Below, piece after piece: positions 17,011 to 29,297 of a stretch of DNA of 64,000 nt. Numbering within the stretch: position 1 is the stretch's first letter; the number at the start of each line of letters is the position of its first letter. The DNA comes from a virus (Duplodnaviria; Caudoviricetes), in the IMG/VR virus record IMGVR_UViG_3300022074_005559, one strand, 5' to 3'. Position numbers and translations under genes: made by a program. Under the pieces are notes generated by a model. That model ran no database searches, was not told the DNA's origin, and worked only from the letters and a program-made list of their open reading frames with translations.

Positions 17011-17612
17011 CATTAACTTATGATACACTAAAGCAGTTTGAAAGTGTACTAAGTGATTATACAGGCGCACCTTATGTTGTGCTAACTGACTGCTGCACAC
17101 ATGCATTAGAACTTTGTTTTAGATACAAAAATCCAGGTCCTGTAACATGCAATGCGCACACATATCTCAGTGTTCCTATGATGTTACACAAGTTAAATAT
17201 TCCTTTCTTTTGGGATCATGAACCGTGGGAATATGAATACAGGTTAGCACCAAGCAACATCTGGGATAGTGCAAGAGGACTAAAACAAGGAATGTATCGT
17301 GCAGGAGCATTACAATGCCTTAGTTTTGGAAACAGTAAAAGATTAGAACTACAAGCCGGCGGTGCTATTCTTACAAGTAACAAACAGGATTATATTGCCT
17401 TAAAGCGTATGGCATATGATGGCAGAGATTTAGATATCACGCCGTGGCAATCACAAGAATCATTTAGCGTAGGATATCATTATGGCATGAGATTAGAAAC
17501 TGCCAAAAGAGGTATTGAAATGCTAACAAATGGTAACCTTAAAGACTTACAAACACAAGCAGTAACTTATCCTGATTGCAGTCTAATAAAGATTGACACA
17601 TTACCTAAATAA
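17007..17612 (+). CDS. short DegT/DnrJ/EryC1/StrS-like PLP aminotransferase
   Basis: CCTHALEL, WDSA, LSFGNSKRL..AGGAIL (Schiff-base Lys position), GYHY; only about 201 aa. Confidence 0.7.
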   Translation: MTLTYDTLKQFESVLSDYTGAPYVVLTDCCTHALELCFRYKNPGPVTCNAHTYLSVPMMLHKLNIPFFWDHEPWEYEYRLAPSNIWDSARGLKQGMYRAGALQCLSFGNSKRLELQAGGAILTSNKQDYIALKRMAYDGRDLDITPWQSQESFSVGYHYGMRLETAKRGIEMLTNGNLKDLQTQAVTYPDCSLIKIDTLPK

Positions 17613-17621
17613 TCATATAAT
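17593..17621 (+). promoter_or_regulatory. sigma70-type promoter for folE operon
   Basis: Perfect TTGACA (17593-17598), 17 nt, TATAAT (17616-17621). Confidence 0.8.
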
Positions 17622-17660
17622 ATAACACAGTGACACACCACTATAACTCGGAGAAAAAAT

Positions 17661-18347
17661 ATGACAACAAGTAACGTAATAACACAACGCCTACGCAATG
17701 CAGGTGCTAGGTATTGGGCAAGTGACAACATTGCCTCTTATCTATATGAAGGTGAAAAAGAACAGCTCATAGACGAACTTACTACTAAGTTTGAAGATGT
17801 ACTGGATAGCCTTATTATTGATCGTGCAAACGATCCTAACAGCAATGACACAGGCAGACGCCTTGCAAAGATGTACATCAACGAATTAATGAGCGGTCGT
17901 TATGATCCTATGCCCAACGCAACTGCATTTCCTAATCATGTCGAAGAAGGCTACAAAGGCATGCTGGTGGTGCGCAGTGAACTTAAGAGTGTGTGTTCGC
18001 ATCATCACCAGCCTGTGAGTGGCGTGGCATACATTGGTATTATTGCTGCAGAAAAACTTATTGGACTAAGCAAGTATACACGCATTGCACAATGGTGTGC
18101 TAGACGCGGTACACTACAAGAAGAACTTTGCAACGATATTGCTCGTGAGATTATGGATGCAACCGGCAGTGAAAATGTAGGTGTTTACATCCAAGCAACA
18201 CACGGTTGTTGTGAGAATAGAGGCATTATGGCACATAGCAGTCTAACACAAACTACTGTGCTAGAAGGTGCATTTACTGAAGATGCAGGTACAAAGAAAG
18301 AGTTTTTCGATAACATTAAACTCCAACAAGAGTTTGCACCTAGATAA
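17661..18347 (+). CDS. folE: GTP cyclohydrolase I
   Basis: SVCSHH, IGLSKYTRI, QEEL, HGCCENRG. Confidence 0.95.
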   Translation: MTTSNVITQRLRNAGARYWASDNIASYLYEGEKEQLIDELTTKFEDVLDSLIIDRANDPNSNDTGRRLAKMYINELMSGRYDPMPNATAFPNHVEEGYKGMLVVRSELKSVCSHHHQPVSGVAYIGIIAAEKLIGLSKYTRIAQWCARRGTLQEELCNDIAREIMDATGSENVGVYIQATHGCCENRGIMAHSSLTQTTVLEGAFTEDAGTKKEFFDNIKLQQEFAPR

Positions 18348-26590: not shown

Positions 26591-26767
26591 ATGATAAGCA
26601 AACCAGCAATAGTATTCGCACTAGAAAGCGAAATAAAACACGCAGAGTCATGCCTGCAACCGCATGACACAGGACACATAAACACAGCCATTGGTTGGAT
26701 GCAACATCGTGTCCGCGAACTTAAACAGGAACTAAAGGAACAACATGAAAAAGACATACATCAGTGA
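26591..26767 (+). CDS. small hypothetical protein (58 aa, not in ORF track)
   Basis: MISKPAIVFALESEIKHAESCLQPHDTGHINTAIGWMQHRVRELK...; fills the gap between the subtilase and the PRTase. Confidence 0.65.
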   Translation: MISKPAIVFALESEIKHAESCLQPHDTGHINTAIGWMQHRVRELKQELKEQHEKDIHQ

Positions 26768-27221
26768 ACAGCAAATCAAAAGTGGTGTACTAGACATCAT
26801 TAGACAAATGTTGCAGGATGACTGGCGTCCTGATTACATTGTAGGCATTACACGAGGCGGACTTATTCCTGCTGTATTGATGAGCCATTATACAGGCATC
26901 AAAATGCATACACTGGATGTCAGACTGCGTGATGGTGGAGAAGATGGTCCTGAATCTAATACATGGCTAGCTGAATATGCAAGCCAAGGTAAAAAAATTC
27001 TTGTGTTAGATGACATCAACGACACAGGAGAAACATTTAAGTGGATTGTGCAGGACTGGCAAGCCAGTGTTATTGACCATATTGATTGGGGCAACACAGT
27101 ACGTTTTGCGGCAATCATCGACAACGTTCCAAGTGAAATGGATGTAGAATACTCTAGCATGGAGATTAACAAGTTGGAAGATCCAAGTTGGATTGTATTT
27201 CCATTTGAGGAGTGGTGGTAA
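26745..27221 (+). CDS. type I phosphoribosyltransferase (xanthine/guanine PRT-like)
   Basis: VGITRGGLIPA, PRPP-binding LVLDDINDTGET, C-terminal WIVFPFE. Confidence 0.9.
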   Translation: MKKTYISEQQIKSGVLDIIRQMLQDDWRPDYIVGITRGGLIPAVLMSHYTGIKMHTLDVRLRDGGEDGPESNTWLAEYASQGKKILVLDDINDTGETFKWIVQDWQASVIDHIDWGNTVRFAAIIDNVPSEMDVEYSSMEINKLEDPSWIVFPFEEWW

Positions 27222-27793
27222 TGCTTATACAAGAACATCCAAACTTTGCTACGAAAGATGACCTAGCCGCTATTTGGGCAATCTGTGTTTGCAACGGGCC
27301 ATGGAGATTTGGACAAAAAAGTAATCCAGACACTTTGTATCCGATGTGGCATCAAGGATACTATGACAATAAAACTGAAGAATATCCAGAAGGTATACCT
27401 GACAATGTGATAGAGCTAGGTAAACGTTTTCTCGAACTATGTGGAGAAGATTACATACTAGTTCGTAACATGATGGCTGGTAATACTTTCGGACAAGATG
27501 GTGATATTCACAAGGACTGGTTGCATCCAGGAGAAAGTCTTACTGGTGTGATTTACCTAAATAGAAGATGGGAAGATAACTGGGGAGGCGAAACACTGGT
27601 ATACAGTGAAAATGGTTCTGCGGAGATAAGTAAATTCGAAGCAGGTAAACTCGCAATGTTTGATGGTTACTATGATCATATAGGTAAAGGTCCTCAACGT
27701 GCTTGTGGAGAACTACGTTGCATACTTGCTATACAGGCAGTCAAACGTGACGCATGGGAAAAACATCTTGACAACATGCGCAAAATATCATAA
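27221..27793 (+). CDS. 2OG-Fe(II) oxygenase (prolyl-4-hydroxylase-like)
   Basis: HKD, YLN..W...WGGET, distal His, LRC..A. Confidence 0.8.
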   Translation: MLIQEHPNFATKDDLAAIWAICVCNGPWRFGQKSNPDTLYPMWHQGYYDNKTEEYPEGIPDNVIELGKRFLELCGEDYILVRNMMAGNTFGQDGDIHKDWLHPGESLTGVIYLNRRWEDNWGGETLVYSENGSAEISKFEAGKLAMFDGYYDHIGKGPQRACGELRCILAIQAVKRDAWEKHLDNMRKIS

Positions 27794-27796
27794 ACT
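27768..27796 (+). promoter_or_regulatory. sigma70-type promoter for queD-queE
   Basis: TTGACA 27768-27773, 17 nt, TAAACT 27791-27796. Confidence 0.65.
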
Positions 27797-27805
27797 ATAC
27801 ACAAT

Positions 27806-27845
27806 AGACGTCACAGGATCGTCCGTCTTAAAACATTCCGACCAT
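27806..27845 (+). promoter_or_regulatory. candidate structured leader (preQ1-I riboswitch-like hairpin/pseudoknot)
   Basis: AGACG/CGTCT stem, 13-nt loop TCACAGGATCGTC, A-rich tail TAAAAC, in the 5' UTR of queD; match to consensus is imperfect. Confidence 0.35.
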
Positions 27846-27862
27846 AACAGAAGGAGTGGGTA

Positions 27863-28342
27863 ATGCCCTATACAAGTACAAAAACATACGGACACAACAT
27901 TGGACTCAGTGCAGTGTTTCGTCAACCACATGCAGATCACAGTCATTGTAGATTCTTGCATGGCTACAGTCTAGCATTTAAGTTTACATTTGCATGCAGT
28001 GATTTAGATCACAGAAACTGGGTACAGGACTTTGGTGGACTAAAAGAACTGAAGAAATGGCTTGAAGAACAGTTTGATCACAAAGTTGTTATTGACAGTC
28101 AAGATCCTCACATGGAAGACTTTTATCATCTAGAGAAACTTGGACTTGCAGAGATTACAGTAATGGATGGTGTAGGCGCAGAGAAGTTCGCAGAACATGC
28201 TTGGCGCTTTGCAGATGAACTTGTACGCAATCAAACAGCAGGTCGTGTAAGTTGTGAAAGCGCAGAGTGCAGTGAGCATGGCGCAAACAGTGCAATCTAT
28301 ACACCATGGCAGGTGCGTAAAGAAACATTCACTGATGTATGA
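27863..28342 (+). CDS. queD: 6-carboxy-5,6,7,8-tetrahydropterin synthase
   Basis: HCRFLHGYS, DFG, FDH, CSEHGANSA. Confidence 0.9.
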   Translation: MPYTSTKTYGHNIGLSAVFRQPHADHSHCRFLHGYSLAFKFTFACSDLDHRNWVQDFGGLKELKKWLEEQFDHKVVIDSQDPHMEDFYHLEKLGLAEITVMDGVGAEKFAEHAWRFADELVRNQTAGRVSCESAECSEHGANSAIYTPWQVRKETFTDV

Positions 28343-29297
28343 AAGTCCAGTATTTGAAAAAGGTTATCCCTCACATGAAGCAGTTAATAGGAAGCCAGCA
28401 ATGAAACTTAGATACAGTGAAGCGTTTTACAGCGTACAAGGTGAAGGCAAGTTTGTAGGAGTACCCAGTGTGTTCCTACGCACATTTGGTTGTAACTTTC
28501 GTTGTATGAACTTTGGACTAGGCAGAAATGAGCCTAGTAGAGAAGAGAAGCACAATGCAGGACAGCGTTACAACGAAGAAGTAAAATCTTTGATTGACGC
28601 CGGAGTAGATAAAACAACAGAAAAGTTTGAAGACTTGCCTATCATTCACACAGGCTGTGATACATATGCAAGTATCTATCCAGAGTTTAAACATTTTAAC
28701 AAGCAAGCAACAGTTGATGAAGTAGTAGAACATCTGCTATCTCTTACACCTAACGGAAAATGGGTACAGGATAACGGACAAGATGTGCATCTTATCATTA
28801 CCGGCGGTGAGCCATTGTTAGCATGGCAAAGACTTTATGTAGACTTATTCGAACATCCAAAGATGAAGGACTTAAGAAATGTTACTTTTGAAACAAATAC
28901 AACACAAATGCTCTACCCTGAGCTCGCAGACTATTTCAACAATCAGGACAGGATTACAGTCACTTGGTCTTGCTCCCCAAAGTTATCAGTTAGCGGAGAG
29001 TCTTGGACAGACGCTATTAAGCCTGATGTGGCTGTTAGTTATAGCAATGTACGCGGCAGTGACATTTATCTTAAATTTGTCGTGGCTGATAGGGTTGATT
29101 TTGAAGAAGTCACTAAGGCTGTTGAAGAGTATCGTGGCGCCGGGATCGAGTGTCCAGTTTATCTTATGCCGCTTGGCGGACGTTCGGAAGAGTATAGCCT
29201 CAATGTTAAAGATGTCGCCGAAGCATGTATGGAGCGAGGTTGGCGCTTCACACCAAGGCTCCACATCAGTCTCTTCGGAAACGCTTGGGGAACCTAG
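28335..29297 (+). CDS. queE: 7-carboxy-7-deazaguanine synthase (radical SAM)
   Basis: YSEAFYSVQGEG, VFLRTFGCNFRC...GCDT, ITGGEP, FETN, CSPK, PRLH; directly follows queD. Confidence 0.9.
   Translation: MYESPVFEKGYPSHEAVNRKPAMKLRYSEAFYSVQGEGKFVGVPSVFLRTFGCNFRCMNFGLGRNEPSREEKHNAGQRYNEEVKSLIDAGVDKTTEKFEDLPIIHTGCDTYASIYPEFKHFNKQATVDEVVEHLLSLTPNGKWVQDNGQDVHLIITGGEPLLAWQRLYVDLFEHPKMKDLRNVTFETNTTQMLYPELADYFNNQDRITVTWSCSPKLSVSGESWTDAIKPDVAVSYSNVRGSDIYLKFVVADRVDFEEVTKAVEEYRGAGIECPVYLMPLGGRSEEYSLNVKDVAEACMERGWRFTPRLHISLFGNAWGT

Follow-up and report, generated by a model that had tools for sequence, protein, structure and literature searches.

The window, that is, the whole 64,000-nucleotide stretch of viral DNA analyzed here, contains a queD gene preceded by a short leader and followed, after a gap of 58 nt (28343 to 28400), by a queE-like gene. 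Genes for a purine phosphoribosyltransferase and a 2OG-Fe(II) oxygenase lie upstream of queD. Inspection of the leader confirmed the layout described by the sequence-only reading, since the promoter, the AGACG/CGTCT stem with its G-C closure and the AAGGAG motif ahead of queD are all present at 27768-27863, and the promoter, helix P1, loop, tail, Shine-Dalgarno (SD) sequence and queD AUG follow each other in the order given there. The features of the locus are as follows.

27768..27796, + strand: sigma-70-like promoter TTGACA-17-TAAACT (10/12 consensus matches)
27806..27843, + strand: whole aptamer-like H-type pseudoknot (match to covariance model R1 and covariation in alignment A1)
27806..27810, + strand: P1 5′ strand AGACG (partner, 27824-27828)
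27811..27815, + strand: L1, UCACA (mostly ACU or UCU in relatives)
27816..27821, + strand: P2 5′ strand (GG, P2b; A27818, bulged; U27819, at the mismatch site; CG, P2a)
27822..27823, + strand: L2, UC (C27823 is invariant and occupies the position of the preQ1-I specificity cytosine)
27824..27828, + strand: P1 3′ strand CGUCU (covariation in A1)
27829..27838, + strand: L3, A-rich loop UAAAACAUUC (little or no variation in its A, U and C columns)
27834..27839, + strand: anti-SD stretch CAUUCC, formed by the last bases of L3 together with C27839 of P2a′ (complementary to GGAGUG at 27853-27858 in the MFE and centroid folds)
27839..27843, + strand: P2 3′ strand (CG, P2a′; A27841, pairs with U27819; CC, P2b′)
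27851..27856, + strand: Shine-Dalgarno sequence AAGGAG (from the sequence)
27863..28342, + strand: queD, PTPS family, 159 aa, the gene under candidate control (PF01242, 3.4e-15; TIGR03367 QueD below cut-off)
28401..29297, + strand: queE-like radical SAM gene (true start set at 28401; NCBIfam QueE models below their cut-offs)
17661-18347: folE, the FolE gene of the window

Transcription is predicted to start at about 27803, approximately 3 nt ahead of P1. The P1 hairpin encloses a 13-nt loop, UCACAGGAUCGUC (27811-27823), and is followed by the tail UAAAACAUUCCGACC (27829-27843). The leader, queD and queE are covered in RNA libraries by assembled contigs of relatives that are 90-95% alike, and the window's own sequence is present in seawater metagenomes and viromes of several studies. 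The stretch 28312-28400 (89 nt) is swapped for 23 other bases in the relatives from RNA-library contigs, and queD and queE are overlapping or unlinked in other relatives. Purine phosphoribosyltransferase genes were found near queD in the window (26745-27221) and in the unrelated phages of loci L426 (4884-5441, + strand) and L447 (Synechococcus phage BUCT-ZZ01), a recurrence that hints at a coupling of guanine salvage to deazaguanine synthesis.

Folded alone as a nested structure, the leader was no more stable than shuffled sequence (MFE z = -0.05). Single-sequence folding is uninformative here because the fold is pseudoknotted, and the case therefore rests on comparison with other sequences. 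Leaders were collected by a gene-blind scan, in which four DNA patterns derived from the conserved core were run against IMG/VR and metagenome contigs and only matches with a complementary P1 were kept, and by a gene-anchored set of 80 IMG/VR loci picked solely for encoding a QueD relative. The scan revealed an element of 40-48 nt before genes of the PTPS/QueD family in at least 166 distinct IMG/VR leaders and at least 82 distinct metagenome leaders, 60 of the latter being new relative to the IMG/VR set. The same element was present in the upstream regions of the gene-anchored queD loci.

Association with queD was nearly complete. Among the matches listed in the IMG/VR pattern scan, 183 of the 185 distinct downstream proteins fell into one BLAST cluster; the other two comprised one PTPS protein according to Pfam and one chance match. 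Ten diverse representatives of the downstream proteins were all assigned to PF01242 (PTPS) by Pfam. Among the matches listed for JGI and other metagenomes, P1 was complementary in 120/120 and a QueD-like open reading frame lay downstream in 108/109. The lone exception (L508, 4563-4907, - strand) has a 115-aa cupin-like gene between the pseudoknot leader and queD. Downstream of queD, a 273-aa protein matching neither Pfam nor NCBIfam was encoded in 51 of 94 motif-bearing loci (for example, L314, 4442-5260, - strand), often followed by genes for UvdE and a HesB/IscA-like Fe-S protein. In 102 of 163 leaders, P1 is preceded at a distance of 5-17 nt by the end of a promoter with at least 10/12 consensus matches, and the element therefore starts the transcript in these; in the remaining leaders, it directly follows the stop codon of the upstream gene.

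Covariation was analyzed in alignment A1, which contains 124 distinct aptamers in 54 columns and was scored with the pseudoknot ...(((((........[[[[[.[[..)))))..........]].]]]]]...... Paired cells amounted to 90.0%, compared to 66.2% after shuffling (a value of 90.0% was reached in 0/500 shuffles) and to at most 55.8% when the structure was slid along the alignment; the covariation score was 0.598 versus 0.184, and both sides changed in 10 of the 12 pairs. P1 was 94.8% paired, with changes on both sides in four of its five pairs (AGACG/CGUCU, AGUGG/CCACU, AGAGG/CCUCU, UGAGG/CCUCG, AGUCG/CGACU and the 4-bp form NAGG/CCUN), and its closing pair (columns 8-27) was G-C in 121/124 sequences. P2 spans 7-8 positions and consists of a 2-bp P2a and a P2b of 2-7 bp around a conserved U.C mismatch, the mismatch position being C in 153 of the at least 166 leaders. 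P2a exists in two forms, UCG with CG and UCA with UG, and the switch between G-C and A-U was without exception where the search had left it unconstrained (21 plus 14 gene-anchored and 40 plus 79 metagenome sequences). P2b occurs in more than 60 distinct pair combinations (UGGCG/CGCCA, UAGCG/CGCUA, GACAA/UUGUC, GACUU/AAGUC, GGCAU/AUGCC, ACAC/GUGU and UAGU/ACUA, for example) and was picked by RNAalifold without any hint. On average, the loop of an IMG/VR leader forms 4.43 bp with its own tail versus 2.49 bp with the tail of another sequence, and the independent metagenome set gave 4.48 versus 2.48 bp. Comparative analysis showed, at the level of predicted structure, an H-type pseudoknot with crossing, covarying P1 and P2 helices in the queD leader, a fold that the sequence-only reading had considered possible.

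The register of the pseudoknot differs from the one proposed there, in which GGA of the loop paired with UCC of the tail: the covarying register joins loop GG(A)UCG to tail CGACC. P2 of the window thus has 5 bp, G27816 G27817 (A27818 bulged) U27819 C27820 G27821 pairing with C27839 G27840 A27841 C27842 C27843, and a U-A pair stands where most relatives have U.C. Its 2-bp P2b is the weakest of its group, close relatives extending this helix to AGG/CCU or UAGG/CCUA. The subtype of loci L081, L123, L138, L162 and L168, whose L1 begins with AUGG, carries a hairpin or insert of 8-12 nt between P2a′ and P2b′. P2b complementarity is retained despite the inserted hairpin in L081, L123, L138 and L168.

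Unpaired positions were conserved as well. L1 starts with ACU in 108, UCU in 33 and UCA in 8 of the at least 166 leaders. L2 is AC in 84, UC in 51 and CC in 27, with C always in the last position. The L3 consensus is (A/U)UAAAYAUUC, one subtype having the shorter CUAAYUC, and the end of L3 is an invariant UUC or CUC. Such invariant unpaired bases resemble those of ligand pockets.

Covariance model R1 was built from A1 with P2 taken as the nested structure. It matched the 64-kb window once, at 27804-27849 (38.7 bits, E = 9.5e-9). In the 80 QueD-anchored loci, R1 gave 64 matches, all directly before queD, and no match elsewhere in their 459 kb. The motif is missing from 13 of about 77 related queD leaders. 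The folE leader (17612-17660) had been considered as a second, weaker copy of the element. Its AGTG/CACT hairpin is indeed present, but the relationship did not hold, R1 having no match there: the region contains only a strong TTGACA-17-TATAAT promoter of its own and this 4-bp hairpin before the SD sequence, and it was rejected as a copy of the motif.

The sequence-only reading placed the element in a queD-queE leader. Joint control of the two genes is not the rule, since queE is not beside queD in most relatives and the motif is found at queD only. Large related records encode a QueE 75-82% identical to that of the window, beside FolE and tens of kilobases from the motif-bearing queD. The motif therefore follows queD rather than the pathway. 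In the close relatives G002 (C1, 68493-69945) and G006 (C1, 100009-101450), folE and queE are adjacent, far from queD, and the pseudoknot leader occurs at queD only. In 29 motif-bearing records, some of them estimated to be 100%, 91%, 86% and 75% complete, QueC was missing or at best marginal. DpdA was sought with the Pfam TGT model in five related records without a match, a result that is uninformative given the divergence of DpdA.

A scan of 185,579 prokaryotic species genomes, one per species, with a pattern that covers AGWGG subtypes only, returned three chance hairpins and one true instance (L440), the latter on phage-like DNA within a metagenome-assembled genome and with phage-protein neighbors. 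QueD relatives are encoded in 107 cultured phage records. No R1 match was obtained, with filters off, in the queD regions of 10 diverse cultured phages (Cellulophaga phiST and phi13:1, Pan1, BUCT-ZZ01, R7M, R5C, MA9V-3, PA5oct, Me-ZS1 and M39). blastn searches with the aptamer for cultured-phage carriers returned nothing or chance 18- to 21-mers, and those with a 3-kb region of the window against cultured phages returned only an 84-nt match within the queD coding sequence, in two Pseudomonas phages. The annotated QueD coding sequence of Cellulophaga phage phiST (KC821604.1; L444, 1330-1959) starts 171 nt before the QueD homology (locus position 1501), and no motif is found there; the deposited start may lie too far upstream. 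Judged from these comparisons, the element is evidently real, abundant and uncatalogued, and it was seen in phage DNA only.

The distance from the end of the aptamer to the AUG has a median of 22 nt, and the SD sequence is not inside P2; the pseudoknot therefore cannot bury the SD sequence. Across leaders, the SD sequence, the spacer and the AUG have complementary bases in the terminal part of L3 and in the P2 3′ strand, after which CAU usually follows. The pairing is CAUUCC/GGAGUG in the window, CCUAC/GUAGG in close relatives and ACUCC/GGAGU in another subtype. Predicted fully exclusive helices reach 8-9 bp in some lineages, as in L364 (AAGUCAUC/GAUGACUU) and L202 (CCAUUAUUA/UAAUAAUGG), and a further pairing of this region is UGUCAUCUU/AAGAUGACA. 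An anti-RBS helix of at least 5 bp can form in 125 of the at least 166 leaders, and the AUG is covered in 96. Ensemble folding of the 3′ half of the aptamer with the ribosome-binding site (RBS) window gave 4.1 expected bp versus 2.3 with dinucleotide-shuffled downstream sequence, the corresponding values being 6.4 versus 2.3 for the window's own group. In all, 83% of the leaders exceeded their shuffles (Wilcoxon 3e-20, kinship ignored). Leaders also pair better with their own RBS than with that of another leader, kinship again being ignored, an effect that is modest with one representative per class (p of about 0.001-0.01). Because the anti-RBS helices reuse P2 or L3 bases, the two predicted folds would be mutually exclusive, and a locked pseudoknot should therefore free the ribosome site. 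This modeled wiring suggests an ON switch. Loci L321, L335, L391 and L399 keep a block, AUCAAACUU(A/G)CUC ... GGAG(G/A)C(A/U)AGAGAUG, between the aptamer and the AUG; CAUC of this block pairs with GAUG, and the rest has no evident partner.

Rfam searches did not assign the element to a catalogued family. A cmscan of the whole window against the 4227 families of Rfam 15 gave nothing at the gathering thresholds (39 bits for PreQ1). At E<=10, scans of 261 or 126 nt covering three subtypes returned chance-level snoRNA and sRNA matches only, without any match to RF00522. RF00522 was also absent from the 316-kb record of a related phage, whereas the control search found it in B. subtilis. None of the Rfam models for preQ1-II (RF01054), preQ1-III (RF02680), SAM-II/SAM-V and guanidine-III matched. 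We found no description of the motif in the literature on phage or queD preQ1-like riboswitches. By the family's own model, the motif is not a member of preQ1-I, even though the preQ1-I-like architecture noted by the sequence-only reading (the C before the P1 3′ strand, the G-C closing pair and the A-rich L3) was borne out, as was a departure from the canonical form, which concerns the start of L1, the end of L3, the length of P2 and the position of the SD sequence.

Three other explanations of the element were weighed. It might be a divergent but true preQ1-I riboswitch, binding preQ1 (or preQ0) and exerting ordinary OFF feedback on the pathway. The H-type topology, a 5-bp P1 with G-C closure, an A/U-C dinucleotide with invariant C, the A-rich L3 and the que gene downstream would all be accounted for. 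We nevertheless consider this quite unlikely in view of the RF00522 searches (no match at E<=10 in three short scans or in the 316-kb relative, with a positive B. subtilis control), of an L1 without the U/UU motif and an L3 that ends in UUC instead of the ligand-contacting A, and of a P2 of 7-8 positions with an internal U.C mismatch, an SD sequence outside P2 and an RBS complementary to P2′. The carriers also have no QueC, and because QueC is missing these phages make no preQ0 or preQ1 themselves.

Regulation could instead be exerted by a protein, QueD itself or another phage product binding the pseudoknot as a translational operator and autoregulating queD without any small-molecule ligand. 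The motif is tied to one gene family wherever this is placed, FolE and QueE being encoded without it in the same genomes, and autoregulation by a protein typically shows such a single-gene-family pattern too; pseudoknots in phage leaders that are bound by the product of their own gene are known, T4 gene 32 being an example. However, hardly any variation is seen in the unpaired core despite the great diversity of the QueD proteins encoded downstream (several PTPS subfamilies, 150-306 aa), and the pocket-like features of this core coincide with those of preQ1-I. We also know of no T-fold enzyme that binds RNA, which counts against an operator of this type, and we regard it as unlikely. The remaining explanation, a constitutive 5′-terminal pseudoknot that senses nothing and serves to shield the mRNA or adjust its translation, or that possibly acts as an RNA thermometer, would fit the position of the element at the very 5′ end of the transcript and the existence of relatives that do without the motif. 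It appears very unlikely to us, since stabilizing elements need neither invariant loop bases nor a second helix that is in competition with the RBS and covaries with it.

Nucleotides 27806-27843 are probably the aptamer of an uncatalogued, phage-specific cis-regulatory RNA, located at the 5′ end of the queD mRNA, that would turn on translation in response to a guanine-like ligand. According to this proposal, a small guanine-like molecule would bind at the P1/P2 junction, pair with the invariant C as in preQ1-I and lock the pseudoknot. Without ligand, the bases at the end of L3 and in the P2 3′ strand would pair with the SD and start-codon region and block initiation (CAUUCC with GGAGUG in the window). 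With ligand, these bases would be held in the pseudoknot, leaving the ribosome site free for the production of QueD. QueD would act as the committed step, channeling dihydroneopterin triphosphate into 7-deazaguanine synthesis for DNA modification.

Candidate ligands would include 7-carboxy-7-deazaguanine (CDG), 7-deazaguanine, preQ0/preQ1, guanine and a GTP-derived pterin, such as the substrate of QueD. A ligand with a guanine-like face is suggested by the invariant C located where P1 and P2 meet and by the G-C floor. Judged from the gene association and the missing QueC, CDG, 7-deazaguanine, guanine or a GTP-derived pterin would be better candidates than phage-made preQ0/preQ1, and the deviations from preQ1-I together with the lack of QueC in the carriers therefore make a ligand other than phage-made preQ0/preQ1 plausible. 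To our knowledge, all known preQ1 riboswitches are OFF switches, and biosynthetic genes are rarely controlled by ON switches; a precursor or signal would suit ON logic better than an end product would. The element is most likely a new riboswitch variant with a preQ1-I-related architecture and inverted logic. We put at about even the further proposition that it constitutes a new, phage-confined riboswitch class, with a preQ1-I-like pocket on another pseudoknot scaffold, in which translation of QueD is switched on by a guanine-like metabolite (CDG, 7-deazaguanine, guanine from DNA base exchange or the pterin substrate).

Few riboswitch classes exist, and the phage examples known to us all belong to classes first found in bacteria. 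Modification of DNA by 7-deazaguanines is an anti-restriction strategy, and QueD is its committed enzyme. If the proposal is correct, aquatic samples, marine ones included, would harbor an abundant riboswitch class seen so far in phage DNA only. No riboswitch would previously have been connected with the modification of viral DNA, and no relative of the preQ1 riboswitches would previously have been of the ON type. Through it, the phage would gate DNA hypermodification at the committed step of the pathway, the viruses themselves sensing a metabolite to time or dose the modification of their genomes. The identity of the ligand would also reveal the deazapurine or pterin pool that is limiting for these uncultured jumbo phages. 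Reconstruction of a preQ1-I-like pocket on another scaffold, with inverted (ON) logic, would be informative for aptamer evolution, and the element would offer a compact ON-switch part of about 40 nt.

Class I preQ1 riboswitches are H-type pseudoknots in which an A-rich L3 occupies the minor groove of P1 and the specificity cytosine, with U or A in front of it, adjoins the P1 3′ strand on its 5′ side (PMC11625349, a 2024 review of preQ1 riboswitches). The P1 closing pair contains a conserved G (G5) that forms the floor of the pocket, L1 starts with U (or UU), the L1 U and the L3 adenine next to P2 read the edge of the ligand, and the short P2 reaches the SD sequence (PMC11625349). Like preQ1-I (RF00522, types I-III, as found at B. 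subtilis queC and in T. tengcongensis and E. coli), the phage motif is a small H-type pseudoknot with a 5-bp P1 and a conserved G-C closing pair, has an invariant C immediately 5′ of the P1 3′ strand, mostly with A or U in front of it, has an A-rich L3 after P1, and sits in the leader of a gene of the queuosine/7-deazaguanine pathway. Unlike preQ1-I, its L1 begins with A/U-C-U instead of U or UU, its extended L3 ends in AUUC without the ligand-contacting A, and its P2 is longer and split by the conserved U.C mismatch, P2 of preQ1-I having about four steps and either including some SD bases or being followed by a terminator. In the phage leaders, the SD sequence is outside the pseudoknot at a distance of 8-12 nt from the end of the aptamer, complementarity exists between the RBS and the P2 3′ strand, with apparent ON logic, and the motif was seen before queD only and in phage DNA only. 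It may have descended from preQ1-I or converged on it.

Three other systems offer partial parallels. The guanidine-III (ykkC-III) riboswitch, an H-type pseudoknot with a compact size of about 40 nt, probably activates translation upon ligand binding. The phage motif shares this compact format, but it has no similarity in sequence or Rfam model, and guanidine-III controls efflux and guanidine genes, whereas the phage element precedes queD. The pseudoknot in the T4 gene 32 leader nucleates the binding of its own product, gp32, for autoregulation; the queD-leader element resembles it in being a pseudoknot located 5′-terminally in a phage mRNA and tied to one gene, but the conserved core of the element resembles a metabolite pocket. 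The adenine riboswitch of Vibrio vulnificus add is a translational ON switch in which the 3′ strand of the aptamer pairs either within the aptamer or with the SD and start region, so that the ligand frees the ribosome site. The add aptamer is a three-way junction, with a different fold and from a different family, whereas its ON logic by exclusive pairing is the one that the predicted pairings suggest for the queD leaders.
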